Shown: piece after piece, positions 5,730 through 63,831 of the stretch
Layout: each line of letters begins with the position of its first letter
How positions within the stretch are numbered: position 1 is the first letter of the stretch
From: Thermoanaerobaculia bacterium
GTDB taxonomy: Bacteria; Acidobacteriota; Thermoanaerobaculia; Multivoradales; UBA5704
Direction of reading: 5' to 3'
Length of the DNA stretch: 64,000 nucleotides
Assembly (NCBI GenBank): GCA_036399915.1
Contig: DASWME010000127.1
Span: 14,305-78,304, forward strand
Position numbers and translations under genes: made by a program
Notes under the pieces: generated by a model
Database searches by the model: none
The model's input: the letters and a program-made list of their open reading frames with translations, nothing else
What the model was told of the DNA's origin: nothing

Positions 5730-6287
5730 ATGCCAACCCCTGTGACCGAGCTCCTCCGCGACTGGCATGGCGGCGATGAAGCCGCCCGCGACCGGCTCAT
5801 CTCGCTCGTCTATGACGAGTTGCGCCGGCTCGCCAGCGGCCAGCTCGCGGGCGAGCGCGGCGGCCATACGCTGCAGCCGACGGCCCTGGTCCACGAGGCC
5901 TATCTGCGGCTGGCCGACCACCAACGGCTGGATTGGCAGGGCCGGACCCACTTCTTTGCCATTGCGGCCATGACCATGCGGCGGATCCTGGTCAGCCACG
6001 CCCGCAAGCACCGAGCAGCCAAGCGCGGCCAGGGCGGGATCGCCGTGACCCTCTGCGAGGACCAGGCGGTCGACGCGGGCCGGAGCGTCGATCTGCTGGC
6101 TCTCGACGAGGCTCTCGCGGCGCTGGAGCGGATCGATCCCCGCCAGTGCCGCATCATCGAGCTGCGCTATTTCGGCGGGCTCACGATCGAGGAGACGGCC
6201 GAGGCGCTGGGGATCTCCCCCGCCACGGTCAAGCTCGACTGGAGCCTGGCCCGCGCGTGGCTGTTCCGGCAACTCTCAAGGAGGTAG
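5730..6287 (+). CDS. ECF-type RNA polymerase sigma factor of the Ser/Thr-kinase-associated subfamily.
   Basis: N-terminus TELLRDWHGGDEAARDRLISLVYDELRRLA and C-terminal region-4 sequence ELRYFGGLTIEETAEALGISPATVKLDW. It lies immediately upstream of a protein kinase gene. Confidence 0.9.
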   Translation: MPTPVTELLRDWHGGDEAARDRLISLVYDELRRLASGQLAGERGGHTLQPTALVHEAYLRLADHQRLDWQGRTHFFAIAAMTMRRILVSHARKHRAAKRGQGGIAVTLCEDQAVDAGRSVDLLALDEALAALERIDPRQCRIIELRYFGGLTIEETAEALGISPATVKLDWSLARAWLFRQLSRR

Positions 6288-6290
6288 CCT

Positions 6291-9083
6291 ATGAACGGCG
6301 ATCGCTGGCAGCGGGTGCGGGAGATCTTCCAGACCGCTCTCGAGCACGATGCCATGGAATGGCCGGCCGTCGTGGCGGAAGCCTGCGGCGGCGACGCCGA
6401 CCTGCGGGTCGAGGTGGAGTCGCTCCTGGCGGCGCACCGCGCGGCGGAGGACTTCCTGGCCGGTCCGCAAGGAGACGACCTGGAGATCCGTTCCCTCGTC
6501 GGGCAGAGGATCGGACCCTACCAGGTCGCGCAAAGGCTGGGCAGCGGCGGCATGGGAGTGGTCTACCTGGCGTTCCGCGCCGACCGGGAGTATCGGCGCC
6601 GGGTGGCCCTCAAGGTGCTCAAGCCCGGCCTCGATTCTGAAGAGGTGATCCGGCGCTTCCGCGCCGAGCGCCAGATCCTGGCGGCCCTGGATCATCCCAA
6701 TATCGCCCGGCTGCTCGACGGCGGCACCACGGAACAGGGCCTCCCCTACTTCGCCATGGAGTACGTGGAGGGCCAGCCGATCGATGTCTACTGCGCCGAG
6801 CGCCACCTTTCTGTGGACGAACGGCTGGAGCTGTTGCGCACCGTCTGCGCGGCGGTGGAGCACGCCCATCGCAATCTGGTGGTCCACCGCGACCTCAAGC
6901 CGAGCAACATCCTGGTGAGCGCGGACGGGACGCCCAAGCTCCTCGACTTCGGCATCGCGAAGCTCGTCAATCCGGAGATCTCGTCCGCGACGCTGGCGAT
7001 AACGGCCCTGGGCCTTCAGCCTATGACACCCGACTATGCCAGCCCGGAGCAGGTCCAGGGGGAGCACGTCACCACGGCCAGCGACGTCTATTCTCTCGGG
7101 GTCCTGCTCTACGAGCTGCTCACCGGCCGCCACCCCTATCGCTCGCGGGCCTCGAGCCTCGCCGAGATGCGGCGGCTCATCAGCGAGGAGGAGCCCGAGC
7201 GGCCGAGCCTCGCCGTGATGCGCCGTGACGAAGACGCCGGGGAAGCCTCCGGCGCGGCTGCGGCCCGCGGCCCGGCGCCAGCCGGCGACCGCGGCCGGCT
7301 GCGCCGCCAGCTCGCCGGCGACCTCGACAACATCGTGCTCAAGGCCCTGCAGAAAGATCCGCGGCGGCGGTACGGCTCGGTGGAGCAGCTCTCCGAGGAT
7401 CTCCGGCGCCATCGGGAACGGTTGCCGGTCACGGCGCGGCGGAGCACTCTCGCCTACCGCGCCGGCAGGTTCATCCACCGCCACCGCGTCGGGGTGGCCG
7501 CCGCGGCGGGCCTGCTCGTGGCGATCCTCGGCTTCGGTATCGCCATGGGAGCGCTCGCCGTCCAGCTCTCCCGCGAGCGGGACCGCGCCGAGCAGGTGAC
7601 CTCCTTTCTCACCTCGATCTTCGAGGTCTCGGATCCCTGGCGCTCCAACGGCGAGACGATCTCCGCCCGCGAGATCCTCGACGCCGGCGCCGCCCGGCTG
7701 CGCACCGAGCTGGCGAACGAGCCGCTCGTCCGCTCGAGCCTGATGGAGACCATCGGGACCATCTACCAGCGCCTGGGGCTCCTGGACCGCGCGCAGCCTC
7801 TGCTCGAAGCCACCCTCGCGACTCGCCGGCAGTTGCTGGGAGAGGAGGCTCCCGAAGTGGCCGACGCGCTGAGTGCCCTCGCCACGGTGCGGGACGAGAA
7901 GGGCGAGACCCAGGCGGCAATCGACCTGGTTTCCAAGGCGCTGGCGATTCGCCGACGCGTTTACGGGCCCCGGCACCAAACGGTAGCGAGTAGCCTGCAC
8001 GAGCTCGGCCTTCTGCTGCGGCGGCAGGGAGATCTGGCGGCAGCGGAGGGCAAGCTGCGCGAAGCGCTGACCTTGCGCCGCGCGCTGTCGCCACCGGCCC
8101 GGCGCGATGTGGCCGACAGCCTGAACGGTCTCGGCATCGTGCTCTGGGAGCGGGGAAGATATCAAGAGGCGGAGCTGGCGACTCGCGAAGCCCTGGCCAT
8201 CCGCCGAGAGGTGCTGGGTCGCAACCGCGTCGAGGTCGCCGGGACCCTCAACCTGCTGGCGGTGATCGCGGTCGCCAAGGGCGATCTGGACCAGGCCGAG
8301 TCCCTGCTGCGCGAGGCCCTTGCCCTGCGCCGCAGGATCTTTGGCAGCGAGCATCCGAGGACCGCGGAAAGCCTCAACAACCTGGGAGCCCTGCTCAAGG
8401 ACCGGGGGAAGCTGGACGAAGCGGAAGGTTTTTTGAGGGAGGCACTCACGATGCGCCGCAAGCTCCTGGGTGAGCAGCATTTGAGTGTGGCGACGACCCT
8501 GGAGAACCTCGGATGGCTCGCGCTCGAACGCCAGGATTATTCGACCGCCGCGCGCCTGCAGCAGCAGAGCCTGGCCATTCGCACCAGAATGCTGGGCCGG
8601 AACCATGGGCTGGTGGCCGACAGCCTCGTGGCCCTTGCCATTGTCCTGGAGCGGCAGGAGAGCTTCGACGAGGCCGAGGAGGCGCTGCGGGAATCGCTCC
8701 GGATCCGGCGGGAGGCGCTCGGAGACCAGCACGTCCTGGTGGCCGTGAGCCTTCAAAGTCTCGCGAGCCTGTTGGCACGTCGAGGCAGGTCCGCGGAAGC
8801 GGAGAGGCTGGCGGTCGAAGCCGTGAACCTCGTTCGCCGCATGCAGCCGGTCATTCCGGCACGCCTCGCTGAGGCCGAGCGCGTCCTCGCCAACTGCCTC
8901 GCCGCCCAGCGCCGGTACGCCGCGGCGGAACCGCTTCTGCTGAAGAGCCTGGAAACGCTGAGGTCCGAGCTCGGCGAGGCGGCTCCCACCAGCCGGGAAG
9001 CACTCGCCGATCTCGTCGCCCTCTACGAATCCTGGGGAAAACCCAAGCAGGCGGCGGAGTGGCGCCGAAAGCTCGTGCGGTAG
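6291..9083 (+). CDS. Ser/Thr protein kinase with a TM segment and C-terminal TPR repeats, partner of the ECF sigma.
   Basis: Kinase motifs RLGSGGMGVVY, VALKVLK, HRDLKPSNILV, DFGIAKL and SPEQ are present. A hydrophobic segment VGVAAAAGLLVAILGFGIAMGAL follows. The C-terminal approximately 450 aa are tetratricopeptide-like repeats (ALAIRRRVYGPRH..., ALTLRRAL...). Confidence 0.9.
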   Translation: MNGDRWQRVREIFQTALEHDAMEWPAVVAEACGGDADLRVEVESLLAAHRAAEDFLAGPQGDDLEIRSLVGQRIGPYQVAQRLGSGGMGVVYLAFRADREYRRRVALKVLKPGLDSEEVIRRFRAERQILAALDHPNIARLLDGGTTEQGLPYFAMEYVEGQPIDVYCAERHLSVDERLELLRTVCAAVEHAHRNLVVHRDLKPSNILVSADGTPKLLDFGIAKLVNPEISSATLAITALGLQPMTPDYASPEQVQGEHVTTASDVYSLGVLLYELLTGRHPYRSRASSLAEMRRLISEEEPERPSLAVMRRDEDAGEASGAAAARGPAPAGDRGRLRRQLAGDLDNIVLKALQKDPRRRYGSVEQLSEDLRRHRERLPVTARRSTLAYRAGRFIHRHRVGVAAAAGLLVAILGFGIAMGALAVQLSRERDRAEQVTSFLTSIFEVSDPWRSNGETISAREILDAGAARLRTELANEPLVRSSLMETIGTIYQRLGLLDRAQPLLEATLATRRQLLGEEAPEVADALSALATVRDEKGETQAAIDLVSKALAIRRRVYGPRHQTVASSLHELGLLLRRQGDLAAAEGKLREALTLRRALSPPARRDVADSLNGLGIVLWERGRYQEAELATREALAIRREVLGRNRVEVAGTLNLLAVIAVAKGDLDQAESLLREALALRRRIFGSEHPRTAESLNNLGALLKDRGKLDEAEGFLREALTMRRKLLGEQHLSVATTLENLGWLALERQDYSTAARLQQQSLAIRTRMLGRNHGLVADSLVALAIVLERQESFDEAEEALRESLRIRREALGDQHVLVAVSLQSLASLLARRGRSAEAERLAVEAVNLVRRMQPVIPARLAEAERVLANCLAAQRRYAAAEPLLLKSLETLRSELGEAAPTSREALADLVALYESWGKPKQAAEWRRKLVR

Positions 9084-57067: not shown

Positions 57068-57862
57068 ATGCCTCCCTCCGCCCTCGACCGCTGGGACGAG
57101 ATCGCCGCTCGCCTGGACGGCCGGCGCCCCGCCCTCTTCCTCGACTACGACGGCACCCTCTCGCCCATCGCGCCGCGCCCCGAGCTGGCGACCCTGCCCG
57201 CGGAGACCCGCGAGGTGCTGCAACGGCTCGCCGCGCAATTCCCCGTGGTGATCGTCTCGGGCCGGGCGCGGGAGGACACGGCCGCCCTCGTCGGTCTCCC
57301 CGATCTCGTCTACGCGGGCAGCCACGGCTTCGACATCGCGGGTCCGCCGCCGATGGACGGCGCGCCGCCGCTCCGACTGGAGGTGGGCGAAGGCATCCCC
57401 GAGCGGATCGACCGCGCGGCCGAGCGGCTCCGGCGCGACCTCGAAGGCCTCCCGGGCGTCCTCGTCGAGCCCAAGCGCTTCGCCGTCTCCGTCCACTTCC
57501 GTCTGGCGGACGAGCGCGACATCCCCCGCATCGAGCGGGCGGTGGACGAGGCCGTCGCCGCCGTCCCCGGCCTGCGCAAGGCCCACGGCAAGATGCTCTT
57601 CGAGCTGCGCCCCGACCTCGACTGGGACAAGGGCCGCGCCCTCCTCTGGCTCCTCGACGCCCTCGGCCTCGACCGCCCCGAGGTCCTCCCTGTCTACATA
57701 GGAGATGACCTCACAGACGAGGACGCCTTCCGCGCCCTGAGGGGCCGGGGAATCGGCATCCTGGTGGCCGAAGAGCCGCGGCAGACGGCCGCGGCGTACC
57801 GGCTGCGCGACACGGAGGAAGTCCGGGAGCTCCTGGAGCGGCTGGCGGCGACGGTGCCCTGA
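57068..57862 (+). CDS. otsB: Trehalose-6-phosphate phosphatase (HAD superfamily).
   Basis: HAD motif I LFLDYDGTL. 264 aa. The start is 2 nt after the otsA stop. Confidence 0.9.
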   Translation: MPPSALDRWDEIAARLDGRRPALFLDYDGTLSPIAPRPELATLPAETREVLQRLAAQFPVVIVSGRAREDTAALVGLPDLVYAGSHGFDIAGPPPMDGAPPLRLEVGEGIPERIDRAAERLRRDLEGLPGVLVEPKRFAVSVHFRLADERDIPRIERAVDEAVAAVPGLRKAHGKMLFELRPDLDWDKGRALLWLLDALGLDRPEVLPVYIGDDLTDEDAFRALRGRGIGILVAEEPRQTAAAYRLRDTEEVRELLERLAATVP

Positions 57863-57938
57863 GAAACACCCGAAGGCGCGGAGAGACCGCAAAGATTGGG
57901 GCGCGAACCGCCTCGGATTGCCCACCGGCCGCTCCAGG

Positions 57939-58083
57939 CAGGTCGCCAAGCCGCGCGGTTTCTCGACCTGTCCGGGGCGTCTGGCGACCTGCCTGCGCCA
58001 TTTTGCGACCTATCGGCTCCGTTTCGCGGCCAGCCGCTCCCGTTTCTCGACCTACCCGTGTAAGCTGGTCGCCAATTCCGGCC
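57939..58083 (+). repeat. Seven tandem imperfect direct repeats of about 21 bp (iteron-like; consensus GTTTCnCGACCTnnCnGnnCC).
   Basis: Units: caggtcgccaagccgcgcg, gtttctcgacctgtccggggc, tctggcgacctgcctgcgcc, ttttgcgacctatcggctcc, gtttcgcggccagccgctcc, gtttctcgacctacccgtgtaa, gctggtcgccaattccggcc. The period of about 21 bp corresponds to roughly two helical turns. Confidence 0.75.
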
Positions 58084-58183
58084 GGCGGTAGGACTTTTTC
58101 TCCCGGCTAGTCGAGAATCCGCGGTCTGTTCCAGGGCTGAGCGGCGGCGCGAAGCGGACCTTCGCCCTTGCAAGGAGGACCTC

Positions 58184-58519
58184 ATGTTACGGAACGAATC
58201 GGTGGCGGATCTGCTCACCCGATTCCAATCACAGCTCCGCCACATCGGGAGCAGGCGCTCCACGCCGAGGAGGCGTTCCACCGCGAGCAGCGGATCCGCC
58301 ACGCCGCCGAGTTGGAGGCGCTTAGGCTTCATTCTAAGCGCTCCAGGCCGCGGTCAACACCGCAGGGACTCTGCAGGACGTGGAGCTAGCGCCAACGGAG
58401 TCCGTTGCGGAGCCCCCGATCTCGCTCGCCTGCGGGAGGGCCAACGCGGCCTCGACATTGTCGAGGAACTCTCCGGCCTCTCGCTGGCGAGGCTTACACG
58501 ACCGATCCGCCCGCATTGA
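58184..58519 (+). CDS. Hypothetical ORF immediately downstream of the iteron-like array (weak call).
   Basis: An AAGGAGG ribosome-binding site lies 6 nt upstream of the ATG, but the protein is R/S/P-rich and may not be real. Confidence 0.3.
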   Translation: MLRNESVADLLTRFQSQLRHIGSRRSTPRRRSTASSGSATPPSWRRLGFILSAPGRGQHRRDSAGRGASANGVRCGAPDLARLREGQRGLDIVEELSGLSLARLTRPIRPH

Positions 58520-58781
58520 CGAGGAGTAGAGACCGGGGTAGAATTACTATGGTCCGTAGAATGAATGACATAGGTATCTTCCGTGACTGTTCGAGGAGGG
58601 ACTTTCAAGCCCCGTCGGTGAGCACGCCAGGGGAACCGTGGCAGATGGAGATGGAGGTTCAGATTAGCGGCACTCGGACCTATATGGCCCTCCGGCTACT
58701 GCTCTGAGGTCTTCCATATTGAGACCGCCTGCGACCCGTACTACACTGACCAGGAGTGTCGAGGAGGAGGACACACCCGAA

Positions 58782-59450
58782 ATGCCGACTGAACTTCGCA
58801 TCCCGGACAGCCAAAGGCCCGCATTCCAGGCGCTTCTGGGCTACGATGAGGCTATGCTTACCTCCCTCCAGGACGCTTTCGCCACTCTCCGCCCCACCAT
58901 TTTCATCCGCGACTCCGCCGCTCATGTCGCTGAAGCTACTGGTTTGGAAGAGACTGAGGTCGGGATCATTCTGCTGATGATCTCCAACTTGTTCGCGCTT
59001 CGCGAGCAGCCAGACATGGGCCGAGATCAACTCCTTGATCAATTGGCTGCCGCGATCAAGGCCGACAGCGAGTTCTCCTCTGCCGCTCCCAAGCTCGAAG
59101 CACTTGTGTCGTTTCTGCGGGCGGTTCTTTCACTTGACGACACGCTCGGAGTCACCTCAAAGGCATGGACCGTGGTGCGCGACTTCGAACGAACGTACTG
59201 CTTTTCGAGAATACTCACGGATATTCGGGCTGTCTTTCGCCCGAATTCAGACGACCCTGCTGCTGCTGTCATCGTCCATAATTTGAAACTGGCCTATCAC
59301 GAGGGCGATGAATTGTGTGAGTTCTTTGTTGGAATGACCTCAAGAGACCTAGAGAAGCTGAAAAAGGTAATTGAGCGTGCAGAGCGCAAAGAAGCCAGCC
59401 TAAGAGCGGGCTTAAAGAGTAGCCAACTTCCCATACTTGAGGTCGAATGA
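58782..59450 (+). CDS. Hypothetical protein (about 222 aa) in a lower-GC island.
   Basis: A GAGGAGGAGG ribosome-binding site lies upstream of ATG 58782. Balanced helical composition. ATGA overlap with the next gene. Confidence 0.5.
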   Translation: MPTELRIPDSQRPAFQALLGYDEAMLTSLQDAFATLRPTIFIRDSAAHVAEATGLEETEVGIILLMISNLFALREQPDMGRDQLLDQLAAAIKADSEFSSAAPKLEALVSFLRAVLSLDDTLGVTSKAWTVVRDFERTYCFSRILTDIRAVFRPNSDDPAAAVIVHNLKLAYHEGDELCEFFVGMTSRDLEKLKKVIERAERKEASLRAGLKSSQLPILEVE

Positions 59451-59785
59451 TGGGTGAGCCACTCCGAAACTGGAACTTGACGGAATCGTGCCACTGGGTT
59501 CGCCACACCATTCGTCCGATCGAATGGGCCAGACCTTCTAGGGTGCTCGCCCCGAGAGACTGGCGCCGGCTGGACCACGCTGCTGAGCCAGCCGATGCTC
59601 CGGATGACCTTGACGACTCAGCCCTTGCCAGTCTTCTAGAGTCGTTCAAGCGTCTTCTCGGGCAAATTGAGGCGACCGATGCCTTCCTGGATAGAGCCTT
59701 CGCACAGTTGGCACAAACCAGACGGCGACTCGACGCGCAACAGGAAGATATTGCCGCTCTCAAGCGGGAGCTTCGTCGTGCCTGA
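59447..59785 (+). CDS. Hypothetical protein (112 aa).
   Basis: Translationally coupled (ATGA) to the upstream gene. The C-terminal half is predicted coiled coil (LLESFKRLLGQIEATDAFLDRAFAQLAQTRRRLDAQQEDIAALKRELRRA). Confidence 0.45.
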   Translation: MMGEPLRNWNLTESCHWVRHTIRPIEWARPSRVLAPRDWRRLDHAAEPADAPDDLDDSALASLLESFKRLLGQIEATDAFLDRAFAQLAQTRRRLDAQQEDIAALKRELRRA

Positions 59786-60092
59786 CGATAAGATCGGTGC
59801 GATTCGACAGCTCCTTCAAGACCTAATTGCACCGGCGGTTGGCCGTATTGAAGAACGCGTCGGTAGCCTCGCCGGTGAATGTGTGAGGCTCGGCGGCGAC
59901 CTTGAGACCAACAGAGGTGAAATCAAGGAGCTCTGGCAAGCGCTCTCCGAAGATCGCGAGCGCATTGCGCGAGTCGAAGGTAGGTTCGACAGCGTCAAGG
60001 AAGAACTGGTTGCCAAAGTGCAACTAGAGTTGGCTCGGCGCTTGCCACCTCCCTCCGGCGCTACGGCCCTTCCAGACTCCAACGAACGTTAG
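59779..60092 (+). CDS. Hypothetical coiled-coil protein (about 104 aa, probable GTG start overlapping the upstream stop).
   Basis: Sequence VPDDKIGAIRQLLQDLIAPAVGRIEERVGSLAGECVRLGGDLETNRGEIKELWQALSEDRERIARVEGRFDSVKEELVAKVQLELARR. It forms an overlapping three-gene series with 58782 and 59447. Confidence 0.4.
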
Positions 60093-60312
60093 CGCGGCAC
60101 TTGGAAGGCTTTCACGAAGCTAGAGTATCCCTAGTAAGAAGCCCCCAAAAGGGATCCCTAATCTTGGGAGATCCCATAGCTGGAGAGAGGCTTATCTCCA
60201 GATTTCGGTTATCAGGAGAGTCGGGAGAGCCCGCGGAGCCAACACTGAGACCCCTTCCGCGCACCTCTCTCCCCGAAGCTCGGAGCCGCGGCCGGCGCGA
60301 CCTGTGCCTGTC

Positions 60313-60370
60313 TGGGGGAGAAGGGGAATCCACTATACTAGGCCCCATAAAATATTCGCGCGGCTCATTC
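60313..60370 (+). repeat. Left copy of a direct repeat: a 28-bp perfect core CCCATAAAATATTCGCGCGGCTCATTCG preceded by a GGGGAGAARGGG motif.
   Basis: The core at 60343..60370 is identical to 61843..61870, an exact 1500-bp offset. The upstream G-rich motif is also shared (60313..60325 and 61819..61831). Confidence 0.85.
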
Positions 60371-60464
60371 GGAGCCACCCTAATCTTGGATCGCATTCAA
60401 GGCTTCACCCCCCCTCCCCCCTCTCCAGCTCCGCTGGGGAGGGGGGCAAAGGCGGTAGGAGCCT

Positions 60465-61385
60465 TTAGAGCGGGCAGAGTCTTGAAGGGGTCGGGCAGGA
60501 GGTCTGCACCCCGTCGCACTCGACGTAGCAGCCGTCGACCGAGAAGCAGGTGCCGGCGCTCCCCGTGCAGGAGACCGATCCGCCGCCTTCGCAGCTCGCG
60601 ACGGCGCTGCAGAGGCACGTATCGGCCTGCGTCGGGGCGGGACAGGTGTCGCTACAGGTGAAGTAGAGCCCGCCGCAGATGTCGTTGCTGACGCAGTTGG
60701 GGTGGTTCTGGAAGTAGCACGGATAGTTGGCGACCAGCTCGGAGCAGACCGAGCAGCCGGTGCCGCGGCAGCCGGCCCACTGCCCCGGCGTGCCCTGACA
60801 CAGGTGACGCCACTGGCGCGAAGAGGTCTTGTCGTTCATGGAGCCCACCGACGAACAATTCGGCCGGCAGGTGAGCTTCGCGCCCACAAAGTTCTGATGT
60901 TCCCAGAGGATGTTCTTGGAGCAATCGGAAAAGCCCCGGGTGGAGCTCAGCCGGTCGTTCCACCCGGAGGGCATGTTGGCCGCGGAGTATCCGATATCCA
61001 CCGTGCAGGCGGTGTCGGCGGTCCAGGTCAAGGTAGACCCACCGAAGTTGATGTGCTCGTAGTCGATCGCCAGGACGAAACTCGCGGCCTTGGTCAGCTC
61101 GTCTTGCCGAGTCCGGAGCTCCTGCTCCAGGATGTCCAGTTGCTCGTCGAAAGACCTCTTCGGCAGGAGGACCCTCCCCTTCGTGGCGAAAAAGACCGCG
61201 TCCCGGAAGGTGGAGAAACACTTGGGTGGCTGGGCTTTAGGCTGAGTTGGATCGATGCCAAGCGGCAGGAGCTTGGCCACGCAGTGTCTGCCGGCCTCTC
61301 TCCCAGGCGGCGCTGCCGTGGCGGTAGAGACGAACGTGATCAGGCCGAGGACGAACAGGACGCTAGTCAGCCTACACTTGTTCAT
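60465..61385 (-). CDS. Secreted protein with a beta/gamma-crystallin-type double Greek-key domain (Streptomyces killer-toxin-like) and a Cys-rich C-terminal region.
   Basis: Signal peptide MNKCRLTSVLFVLGLITFVSTATAAP. Greek-key signatures YEHINFGG (Y-x4-F-x-G), WNDRLSS and WEHQNFVG. The C-terminal approximately 110 aa contain about 24 Cys (CSVCSEL..CYFQNHPNCVSNDICGGLYFTCSDTCP...). Confidence 0.65.
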   Translation of the reverse strand: MNKCRLTSVLFVLGLITFVSTATAAPPGREAGRHCVAKLLPLGIDPTQPKAQPPKCFSTFRDAVFFATKGRVLLPKRSFDEQLDILEQELRTRQDELTKAASFVLAIDYEHINFGGSTLTWTADTACTVDIGYSAANMPSGWNDRLSSTRGFSDCSKNILWEHQNFVGAKLTCRPNCSSVGSMNDKTSSRQWRHLCQGTPGQWAGCRGTGCSVCSELVANYPCYFQNHPNCVSNDICGGLYFTCSDTCPAPTQADTCLCSAVASCEGGGSVSCTGSAGTCFSVDGCYVECDGVQTSCPTPSRLCPL

Positions 61386-61818
61386 GGCAGTCTCCTTTGT
61401 CGAGTCCGCGTGCCGGCCGGCTTTCGCACCCTACACATACCAGATTTTGATATTTGTGTCGATAGGCAGCCTAGCGACTTTAATTTTTTCGAGGTGCGCG
61501 CGTACCAGGAAAGACCAGGGGGCGGGGGACCGCTCCTGGGCTTCCCGCTCCGGCCAGCTCCGCTTTCACCACCCGGCCCACCACGAGCGTCAGGTCGTCC
61601 TCGAAGGCGCCCGCGCGTTTGCTCGAGCTTCATGCCCTGATCTGGGGACTCCTCGCCGCGCTCTGATCCCGGCTCCTCGCAGGTCGGCAGCACTGGGGAG
61701 GCGCTTCTCTGCGGGATGGAGGGGTTCCCGCGCAGGGAGATGACAACGCCCTGCCAGGGAAAGGGCTCGCCCGGTCGGGGAAAGCCCCTCTCCCCACGGG
61801 GAAGGCCTCTTCCCCAGT

Positions 61819-61870
61819 GGGGGGAGAAAGGGAGCCACCAGGCCCATAAAATATTCGCGCGGCTCATTCG
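61819..61870 (+). repeat. Right copy of the direct repeat, immediately upstream of the ECF sigma start.
   Basis: Identical 28-bp core, which ends 13 nt before ATG 61884. Confidence 0.85.
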
Positions 61871-61883
61871 TCTACACTAGTAG

Positions 61884-62456
61884 ATGAACGAGACGCTCAC
61901 CATCGACGAGATGACCGAAGAGCAGGACCGGCGCATCTCCCAAGCGGTTGCCCGCGAGGGATCCCGCCTGCGGGCATTCATCCGCCGGCGCGTGGCCGAC
62001 GCGAGGGATGCCGAGGACATCCTGCAGGAGGTCTTCTACGAGCTCGTCGAGGCGGTCCGGCTGATGACGCCGATCGACCAGGTGGGCGCATGGTTGTTCC
62101 GCATCGCCCGCAATCGCATCACCGATCTCCTTCGCAAACGGGCGCCGGAAGCGCCGCGCGACGTCTCTGTCGAGGACGAAGCCTTCGCGCTCGGGGACCT
62201 TCTCCCCTCCCCCGACGGCGGGCCTGAGGCGGAGCTCGCGCGCGGCGTGCTGCTGGAGGAGCTCGCGGCCGCGCTCGACGAGCTGCCGGACGAGCAGCGC
62301 GAGGTCTTCATCGCCCACGAGCTGGAGGGGCGCAGCTTCAGAGAGCTCGCCGCGGAGACGGGATTGAGCATCAACACTCTGCTGTCGCGCAAGCACTACG
62401 CAGTCCTTCACCTGCGCCGGCGGCTGCGCGACATCTATGACGAATTCAAAGACTAG
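61884..62456 (+). CDS. ECF-type RNA polymerase sigma factor.
   Basis: Region 2 DAEDILQEVFYELVEAVRLMTPIDQVGAWLFRIARNRITDLLRKR. Region 4 REVFIAHELEGRSFRELAAETGLSINTLLSRKHYAVLHLRRRL. Confidence 0.9.
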   Translation: MNETLTIDEMTEEQDRRISQAVAREGSRLRAFIRRRVADARDAEDILQEVFYELVEAVRLMTPIDQVGAWLFRIARNRITDLLRKRAPEAPRDVSVEDEAFALGDLLPSPDGGPEAELARGVLLEELAAALDELPDEQREVFIAHELEGRSFRELAAETGLSINTLLSRKHYAVLHLRRRLRDIYDEFKD

Positions 62457-62825: not shown

Positions 62826-63074
62826 GGTACCCGGCGCCCACAATTCGTCCTGAACGAGGGGAAAGGTGCCCATGAAAGCGGCAACGAGCAACTCTTCGCC
62901 GCGACCGTGCCGGCGATCGTCGCCTGGAGAACCGTGCTGATCATCCTGCCCGTGGGCCTCGCCTTTGGCTGGCTCTATATACGCCGCGGCCTCGCGGCGG
63001 TGATCCTCTCCCATTTTGTGATCGACATCATCGTGCACGTCGTGCGGCCCATAGTCGAGCAGGGGCTCGCATGA
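62826..63074 (+). pseudogene. C-terminal remnant of a CPBP (CAAX-protease-like) intramembrane metalloprotease.
   Basis: Reads ...EQLFAATVPAIVAWRTVLIILPVGLAFGWLYIRRGLAAVILSHFVIDIIVHVVRPIVEQGLA* with the C-terminal HxxxD/N-type motif. The upstream motifs (EExxxR, FxxxH) are absent, and the frame runs into the preceding gene. Confidence 0.4.
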
Positions 63075-63156: not shown

Positions 63157-63387
63157 GTGCGGAACTTGACCCTGGCGATCGAGGACGAGGTGCTCGAGGC
63201 GGCGCGCCGGTTGGCGCTCGAGCGGGGCACGACTGTCAACCAGCTCGTGCGCGACCATCTGGCAGACCTGGTGGCGCGAGAGGGCCGGCGCCGTGCCGCA
63301 GCCGAGCGCCTCAGGCGCGCAATGCGGGAGGAGTTGGTCGAGGTCGGCCCCCGCACTTGGACGCGCGAGGATCTATATGAACGATGA
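63157..63387 (+). CDS. Type II antitoxin (ribbon-helix-helix / VapB-like).
   Basis: 76 aa, MRNLTLAIEDEVLEAARRLALERGTTVNQLVRDHLADL. Its 3' end overlaps the PIN gene start. Confidence 0.75.
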   Translation: MRNLTLAIEDEVLEAARRLALERGTTVNQLVRDHLADLVAREGRRRAAAERLRRAMREELVEVGPRTWTREDLYER

Positions 63388-63831
63388 GGCTCCAGCCTTC
63401 GTCGACACCAACATCCTCGCCTACGCCTTCGACAGTACCGACCGCACCCGCCAGCGCTCCGCAGCACAACTGCTTTCCCACCTGATGGACGAGGACCGGT
63501 TGCGCCTGAGCACTCAGGTACTCCAAGAGTTCTCGTCACGATGACGCGAAAGGTCCGGCCCCGGTGGTCTCCAGACCGCGCCCTCGCGAAGCTCGATGAC
63601 TTCGCTGCCTGGCCGGTGATCGCTGCCGATCTCTCTCTCATCCGAGAGGCGGTCCTGCTATCGCGCGACGCCGTCCTCTCGTTCTGGGATGCCCTGATCG
63701 TGGTCACAGCCGTCCGCAGTGGCGCAGGCATCCTCTATACTGAAGATCTCAACGACGGTCAGGTCCTCCGCGGGGTGCGAGTCGTCAATCCCTTCAGCAC
63801 CGGGGCTTCTGGTTTGAGGGATCAGACCTAG
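63377..63831 (+). pseudogene. vapC: PIN-domain VapC toxin interrupted by a frameshift near 63535.
   Basis: N-terminal part MNDEAPAFVDTNILAYAFDSTDRTRQRSAAQLLSHLMDEDRLRLSTQVLQEFSSR* (ORF 63293..63544). The C-terminal part (ORF 63541..63831) TRKVRP...SFWDALIVVTAVRSGAGILYTEDLN is in the -1 frame. Together they give the PIN acidic residues (D..E..D..D). Confidence 0.7.

Follow-up and report, generated by a model that had tools for sequence, protein, structure and literature searches.

A foreign operon headed by a COMMD-like gene in a Thermoanaerobaculia genome, and its relatives with exchangeable gene pairs

The stretch of DNA analysed here (the window; 64,000 nucleotides (nt)) belongs to a contig of a Thermoanaerobaculia (Acidobacteriota) metagenome-assembled genome and carries, within a block of lowered G+C content (GC), three overlapping genes that we call A, B and C. 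The first encodes a prokaryotic COMMD-like protein, and the three together form one translationally coupled, conserved and foreign operon. NCBI annotates A (VGG03_09185) and C (VGG03_09190), and B is unannotated in the public records of the contig. The elements of the operon, in window coordinates, are as follows (GC3, GC at third codon positions; L095, a related locus described below).

58522–60400, no strand: lower-GC, horizontally acquired block, delimited by a shift in GC and GC3
58522–58776, plus strand: 5′ leader of the operon, the left edge of which aligns with the left terminal inverted repeat of the L095 cassette; the repeat is degenerate in the window
58719–58747, plus strand: likely promoter, TTGAGA, 17-nt spacer, TACACT (consensus scan, 9/12)
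58761–58770, plus strand: Shine–Dalgarno-like GAGGAGGAGG, 11 nt before the ATG of A, read from the sequence
58782–59450, plus strand: gene A, 222 amino acids (aa), prokaryotic COMMD-like protein with an HN domain, made of helices, plus a COMM domain
59447–59785, plus strand: gene B, 112 aa, N-terminal Cys/Trp/His motif, variable linker and C-terminal coiled-coil helix of about 50 residues
59778–60092, plus strand: gene C, 104 aa, GTG start, one long amphipathic helix and a disordered tail
60180–60201, plus strand: weakly supported terminator-like hairpin with a T-rich tail, 88 nt past the stop of C (pattern scan; such sites are no more numerous than in shuffled sequences)

In the window, A and B share an ATGA and B and C overlap by 8 nt (GTGCCTGA). 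An initial annotation of this DNA had placed the three genes at 58782, 59447 and 59779 and described them as overlapping start to stop; the overlaps stand, and the start of C is corrected to the GTG at 59778. The ribosome-binding site that it assigned to the first gene is the Shine–Dalgarno-like sequence listed above. Its left boundary of the block, 58184, was set by an uncalled open reading frame (ORF; 58184–58519) outside the conserved unit. We rejected this ORF as a gene, together with those at 58168–58389 and 58405–58707: no gene caller reports them, they have zero family matches, and they lie outside the region that is conserved in relatives. Upstream of A, the TTGAG of the −35 element and the CGTACTACACT −10 region are kept in two related loci (L103 and L104), the DNA around the promoter being unalignable; downstream, conservation among relatives ends a few bases past the stop codon of C.

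The exact B sequence was not found in the protein collection searched. NCBI omits B from two Thermoanaerobaculia genomes, at the present locus and at L008/L009: the tag of A is followed straight by that of C (VGG03_09185 to 09190; VLF66_04185 to 04190). An N-terminally extended call of C (137 aa) bears the Joint Genome Institute (JGI) name 'RmuC', for which Pfam gives no support and which we did not retain.

An operon conserved across seven lineages and foreign to its host

Only seven homologue clusters lie close to A, and their contigs carry A-B-C (the L003 group, the L009 group, L103, L104, L095 and L097). Across these seven diverged lineages, in which the GC of the host spans 0.47–0.59 and the flanks are unrelated, A and B overlap by 1–4 nt, and the junction of B and C is always an 8-nt overlap of the form NTG-NC-T-RA; the recurrence of both overlaps is not due to chance. 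Identity between lineages decreases from codon position 2 to 1 to 3 in each of the three genes, which indicates that all of them encode proteins, including the unannotated B, and, judged by this comparison, A, B and C are under purifying selection. The proposed translational coupling is borne out in this set, as is the conservation of the genes as a unit, with the same three genes and the same overlaps in all seven lineages.

The block differs sharply from its surroundings in composition. GC is 0.54–0.60 in the block and about 0.70 in the flanks, and the drop begins at about 58522, with segment values of 0.665 (57863–58521), 0.558 (58522–58781), 0.568 (58782–60092) and 0.602 (60093–60464). Likewise, the GC3 of A, B and C is 0.58–0.60, compared with 0.82–0.93 in neighbouring genes (otsA, otsB, the extracytoplasmic function (ECF) sigma gene and others). 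The GC well below that of the flanks had been read as the mark of an acquired block, a reading that the contrasts in GC and GC3 support; the operon was acquired horizontally and is now apparently immobile.

Scans of A, B, C and the upstream ORFs against Pfam, PADLOC, PHROGs and NCBIfam returned nothing above threshold. A profile built from seven homologues of A (profile A1) and run with hmmsearch against the PDB nonetheless matched 9q6a_A, 'COMMD-like protein MBK5214510', over residues 5–210 (E = 3.2e-25) and also, weakly, human COMMD7. The AlphaFold2 model of A (predicted local distance difference test score (pLDDT) 71) has helices at 9–20, 23–34, 42–53, 57–74, 81–94 and 96–116, a low-confidence helix at 122–137 besides these six HN helices and, in the C-terminal part, strands at 143–152, 159–174 and 177–185 followed by a helix at 187–212. 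Foldseek with this model placed 9q6a and 9q6c on top (E = 5e-9 to 2e-7), followed by at least eight human COMMD subunits (8f2r and 8p0w; E about 1e-4, probability 1.0). The COMM domain is the best-conserved part of the family, with an identity of 41–47% versus 21–25% for the HN domain. By profile and by structure match, A is a prokaryotic COMMD-like protein with an HN and COMM architecture, and the initial statement that none of the three genes has recognisable motifs fails for A. A sub-threshold EAD2 match to A (E = 0.025) was dropped after the COMMD-like match. The Pfam COMM_domain model does not match A at E up to 1, as expected from an identity to the eukaryotic proteins of under 20% (PMC13392464).

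The COMMD-like family was first described in 2025–26, and MBK5214510 comes from a Flavobacteriaceae bacterium (Liu et al., Nat Commun 2026, PMC13392464). By structure search, that study found 250 bacterial and 111 archaeal members; it reported that the prokaryotic proteins build rings, homo-octameric as well as homo-decameric ones, found no prokaryotic CCDC22 or CCDC93, and stated the function of prokaryotic COMMD-like proteins to be unknown (PMC13392464). A aligns with these proteins (MBK5214510; 9q6a, 9q6c and 9q6d) over nearly its full length (E = 3e-25) and shares their size of about 220 aa and their domain order, in which the six helices of HN precede the three strands and the helix of COMM. 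From its homology to them, A is expected to form a ring of eight or ten identical subunits, joined through the COMM domain and leaving the HN domains exposed. Whereas the published structure search lists 250 bacterial members, our HMMER scan with the sequence profile recovered 4873 representative clusters (50% identity) at E ≤ 1e-3 and 1225 clusters at E ≤ 1e-30, with lengths of 208–264 aa in nearly all of the 150 listed members.

B carries the invariant N-terminal motif C15-x-W17-xx-H20-xx-R23-xxx-W27 (alignment A9) and a heptad-patterned C-terminal helix of about 50 residues. The alignment of C (A8) has 17 invariant positions, and the AlphaFold2 model of C is a single uninterrupted helix (2–88; pLDDT 87.7) followed by a disordered tail. 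In the PDB, the profiles of both proteins match generic coiled coils (viral fusion cores, GCN4, Jun, Max and mitofusin), and no CCDC22 or CCDC93 chain was among the matches of A8 or A9 at E up to 10, with 8f2r present in the PDB copy searched. Both products had been said to end in long coiled coils: this is supported for the C-terminal half of B, by its heptads and its coiled-coil-only PDB matches, and not for C, which ends in the disordered tail. The distribution of both is narrow. The C profile found nine clusters among 5.8 billion proteins, the B profile, built from three sequences, found homologues only beside closely related A genes, and neither matched beyond its own clade among 95 loci. 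In PADLOC-DB v2, A and B have no match and C has only a chance-level one (E = 0.06), so that the operon does not correspond to a known defence module in that collection.

Gene pairs behind COMMD-like genes and their IS1595 linkage

We sampled the wider family through three genome loci, found with a narrow degenerate search pattern, and 80 metagenome loci encoding relatives of A. Of the distinct loci, 50 extend at least 1 kilobase (kb) downstream of A, and all 50 have two tightly coupled genes after it on the same strand, with gaps of −29 to +20 nt (medians about 0 and −4). Two independently gene-called contigs agree with this layout, one containing both downstream genes and the other the first of them before the contig ends. 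Most pairs belong to three types.

Type I pair, 41 loci: a protein of 138–231 aa with a conserved C-terminal helical domain, then a DUF7689 protein
Type II pair, 29 loci: a 'DWDxEG...PGPDGSIDLHW' protein, then a protein of about 125 aa with 'RVH...GMSTDW...VEHxP...NRAH'
Type III pair, 9 loci in the sample: B and C

Rarer pairs are also seen. Second and third genes of different types were never mixed in any locus, the profiles of the pair types are unrelated (hhalign probability below 3%), and the nearest relative of A carries the same pair type in 65 of 72 cases. These three observations indicate that the pairs are co-inherited cassettes that are occasionally swapped; as read from the sampled loci, the architecture of the family is a constant COMMD-like first gene followed by a swappable, co-inherited pair.

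The DUF7689 third gene has invariant Asn-Cys and His residues. The content of some of the rarer pairs can be recognised. In one of them (L051), the third gene encodes a PIN domain (E = 2.4e-11), and the second gene product ends in 24 residues that match the C-terminal part of a VapB antitoxin model (NF050009; E = 1e-4, well below the curated cut-off). The match of the L060 third gene to HEPN is borderline (E = 4e-4) and falls slightly short of the cut-off, and for the type II second gene there is a weak match to PDC-M32A, a PADLOC candidate (E = 1.3e-4). PDB profile searches with the four common pair families returned no relatives, and NCBIfam gave nothing for the pair families except the VapB tail in L051.

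Clear motifs in the second-position proteins occur only within their own types, as 'xCDxxxxW' in type I and 'SCxW' in type III. There is a Cys-Trp likeness between the 'SC[HDQ]W..H' of B (window 59486–59527) and the type I motif, which lies ahead of the conserved domain (L027, L034 and L062), and the two could represent a common ring-docking element. We rejected a docking motif common to all second-position proteins: Trp is not specifically enriched at the N terminus, and a generic C-x(0-6)-W occurs in 38% of these proteins, not significantly more than the 29% seen in shuffles.

A census by Pfam family of the ORFs flanking 30 long loci (150 ORFs) revealed no conserved neighbourhood; the commonest family was the IS1595 transposase. 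Whole or fragmentary IS1595-family transposases occur in 20 of 86 distinct loci, and in 10 of the 36 loci with at least 1.1 kb upstream the transposase is co-oriented and ends less than 600 nt before A. By type, such a co-oriented upstream transposase is found in 9/18 type I loci and 0/11 type II loci. Terminal inverted repeats enclose both the transposase and the triad in three loci.

L005: terminal inverted repeat of 41 nt, 88% complementary
L027: terminal inverted repeat of 29 nt
L082: terminal inverted repeat of 25 nt

Two of these elements also enclose a few further small genes. With inverted repeats around transposase and triad, the triads of L005, L027 and L082 are passengers of IS1595-family transposons, and part of the COMMD-like family is transposon cargo. 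Siguier, Gagnevin and Chandler (2009; cited in PMC7986276) reportedly described IS1595-family 'transporter' insertion sequences with passenger genes, as well as transposase-less mobile insertion cassettes. The relatives found here share the layout of left inverted repeat (IRL), DDE_Tnp_IS1595 transposase, triad and right inverted repeat; the window copy differs in lacking the transposase and intact inverted repeats, and only its left edge is homologous to an end of L095. Our literature searches found no description of the triad architecture, of cassette swapping or of IS1595 linkage, nor of a COMMD-like triad as IS1595 passenger content; neither the paper on COMMD-like proteins (PMC13392464) nor a follow-up preprint (bioRxiv 10.64898/2026.02.02.703414) mentions operons, toxins or antitoxins.

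Among type III loci, L097 has a transposase upstream, and in L095 only A-B-C, without a transposase, lies between the arms of a perfect inverted repeat of 19 nt, which is flanked by a T-run direct repeat. The L095 cassette adjoins the end of a Mu-like prophage, and in the L001 group an L095-type right-end motif lies 14 nt past the stop of C. The leader in the window (58522–58776) aligns with L095 7743–7994 with a local alignment score of 71, compared with 32 ± 5.6 in shuffles (z = 6.9), and the alignment starts exactly at the L095 IRL (GGATAGTGTCC...), at the same position as the GC break in the window. Given this coincidence, the window copy looks like an old, decayed insertion of an L095-like, transposase-less cassette. 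No inverted repeat of the L005, L027 or L082 type was found in the window. The similarity of the leader to that of L095 is seen although the A proteins are only 42% identical, and the closer L103 (79%) shares the promoter only; the likeness may reflect recombination of the leader or a conserved regulatory element.

Several further observations were made at related loci. Upstream of A in the L001 group, GGGTAATAATGATAC (L001 4716–4731) resembles the IS1595-type terminal repeat of L005 and L027, and a DUF7718 and DUF5647 gene pair lies downstream of the triad in L001–L004, L015 and L016. The Mu-like prophage of L095 encodes a transposase, a MuB-like AAA protein and Gam. Outside the cassette, the stretch between it and the prophage repressor end (L095 6270–7713) encodes two paralogous proteins of 173 and 174 aa, each with a hydrophobic and seemingly membrane-spanning segment at the N terminus, as well as a hydrophobic protein of 48 aa. 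One of only two matches on viral contigs is a complete type I triad (COMMD-like protein, cluster-0 protein and DUF7689) at 5983–7584 of a contig classified as viral (L101; IMG/VR uncultivated virus genome (UViG) 2911257185_000004).

Features around the operon

On the left, the 3′ flank of otsB (57935–58075) contains two copies of GTTTCTCGACCT (57958 and 58042), along with a perfect inverted repeat of 14 nt, CAGGCAGGTCGCCA / TGGCGACCTGCCTG (57935 and 57982). These are presumably the 'iterons' of the initial annotation; their GC resembles that of the host, and the acquired block does not include them. On the right, a long G/C-rich palindrome (60391–60473) separates the C operon from a convergent gene and probably serves as a terminator in both directions; its matches in Rfam, all to microRNAs, are at chance level. 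The convergent gene encodes a Cys-rich secreted protein (60465–61385, minus strand; weak beta/gamma-crystallin match) and is bracketed by a perfect 28-nt direct repeat, CCCATAAAATATTCGCGCGGCTCATTCG (60344–60371 and 61843–61870), with an imperfect extension to about 55 nt. The second copy lies 13 nt ahead of the point at which the ECF sigma gene starts (61884), and the repeat therefore looks like a duplicated promoter region. Further downstream, 62907–63074 holds what is probably a pseudogene remnant, a CAAX/Rce1-like protease reduced to a C-terminal fragment of 55 aa, followed by a VapBC-type pair (63157–63831) of a ribbon–helix–helix (RHH)-antitoxin-like gene and a PIN-domain gene.

Candidate roles of the triad

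We propose, with chances that we judge to be about even, that the triad is a mobile tripartite toxin–antitoxin-like addiction or conflict module in which the COMMD-like ring is the constant hub. The ring would hold or regulate a variable adaptor or neutraliser, encoded in second position, and an effector, encoded in third position, and the module would help its mobile element to persist, as an addiction or conflict system. In the window, B may dock onto the ring through its conserved Cys/Trp/His N-terminal motif, and its C-terminal helix may pair with the long helix of C; through this heteromeric coiled coil, B would neutralise or present C, the putative effector.

Tripartite toxin–antitoxin systems are known, for example toxin–antitoxin–chaperone (TAC) systems with a SecB-like chaperone. 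As in these, a toxin–antitoxin-like pair is joined in one operon by a third, oligomeric and non-enzymatic protein, and the L051 pair combines a PIN protein with a partner that has a VapB-type tail and whose N-terminal region is non-standard. The triads differ in that their third component is a COMMD-fold protein whose gene comes first instead of last, in that unrelated families replace one another as pairs, in that neither B nor C can be recognised as a toxin or antitoxin family, and in that no chaperone-addiction segment was identified. The toxin–antitoxin-like character first suggested for the block gains from pairs in the wider family (PIN with the VapB tail, borderline HEPN) and finds no such domain in B or C themselves.

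Several results weigh against our proposal. Neither B nor C shows the signature of a toxin, an antitoxin or an enzyme in Pfam, PADLOC, PHROGs or NCBIfam, and a soluble, acidic, single-helix C would be an unusual toxin. Clearly toxin-like pairs are rare, and the two common pair types are themselves uncharacterised; the sampled loci are moreover the nearest relatives of A, not the whole family of 4873 representatives. The flank census shows no enrichment of classical defence genes. As for mobility, six-frame translation of 57801–61900 revealed no transposase remnant, the window has no recognisable right end (no L095-type right repeat and no target-site duplication), and no homologue of A was found in the plasmid record collection or in 50,697 phage records. 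Among the neighbours of other COMMD-like genes, no AlphaFold-predicted partners were found (PMC13392464).

A rather unlikely alternative is a structural scaffold with no role in conflict, in which the ring binds a B–C heterodimeric coiled coil, as in the eukaryotic CCC/Commander complex, and organises a cellular process. Several points speak for it: A is COMMD-like in fold, with human CCC subunits among the matches of its model, and the core of CCC/Commander (a COMMD1–10 ring with CCDC22 and CCDC93) likewise combines COMMD-fold proteins with two coiled-coil proteins, which are here encoded together with A. Eukaryotic HN domains contact the N-terminal regions of two coiled-coil proteins (bioRxiv 10.64898/2026.02.02.703414); B, which joins a conserved N-terminal motif to a coiled coil, carries a segment that could contact the ring in this way, and C is one long helix. 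The translational coupling of A, B and C also favours stoichiometric co-assembly. However, the ring predicted here is homomeric and comes from one gene instead of ten paralogues, and B and C are only about 100 aa long, lack NN-CH domains and have no detectable similarity to CCDC22 or CCDC93, their profiles retrieving generic coiled coils instead. B and C are also limited to a rare clade (nine C clusters), and in most of the bacterial family unrelated globular proteins take their place, so that coiled-coil partners are no general property of these rings. Foreign GC, variable location and transposon linkage fit an accessory mobile module and not a housekeeping scaffold. A narrower form of the comparison, in which a ring decorated with a heteromeric coiled coil of B and C, with the B motif on the HN domains, is a bacterial counterpart of the COMMD–CCDC22–CCDC93 core carried on a mobile element, seems to us distinctly unlikely.

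It is quite improbable that the triad is an accessory of IS1595-family transposition itself, such as a ring-shaped regulator or target-selection factor. The co-oriented transposase directly upstream in 9/18 type I loci and the position of triads inside terminal inverted repeats would suit such a role, but the transposase is found in 0/11 type II loci and most loci have none, the swapping of pairs among unrelated families, including PIN and borderline HEPN, fits a diversity of cargo or effectors, and the triad in the window keeps intact reading frames with no transposase close by. Hardly credible, and contradicted by the conservation data, is the view that A, B and C are unrelated orphan genes or prophage structural remnants, adjacent by chance and with no joint function: all three fall below threshold in the four collections and one relative adjoins a Mu-like prophage end, but A-B-C recurs with the same overlaps in seven lineages that differ in flanks and host GC, the codon-position pattern points to purifying selection on all three genes, and none of the phage records contains a homologue of A.

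The constant component, A, adds a member to a family that was described only recently, and it is of unusual evolutionary interest. Bacterial and archaeal COMMD-like rings are likely ancestors of a core part of the eukaryotic Commander trafficking complex. The window and about 90 related loci give a testable context for the function of the bacterial proteins. If our proposal of a tripartite addiction or conflict module is true, it would provide a biological role for bacterial COMMD-like proteins and define a new, widespread kind of tripartite mobile module, with two coiled-coil proteins as candidate binding partners for structural work on how COMMD rings engage their clients. Should binding of the CCC kind prove true, the partnership between COMMD rings and coiled-coil adaptors would predate eukaryotes, and bacterial rings would be hubs for swappable effector cassettes.

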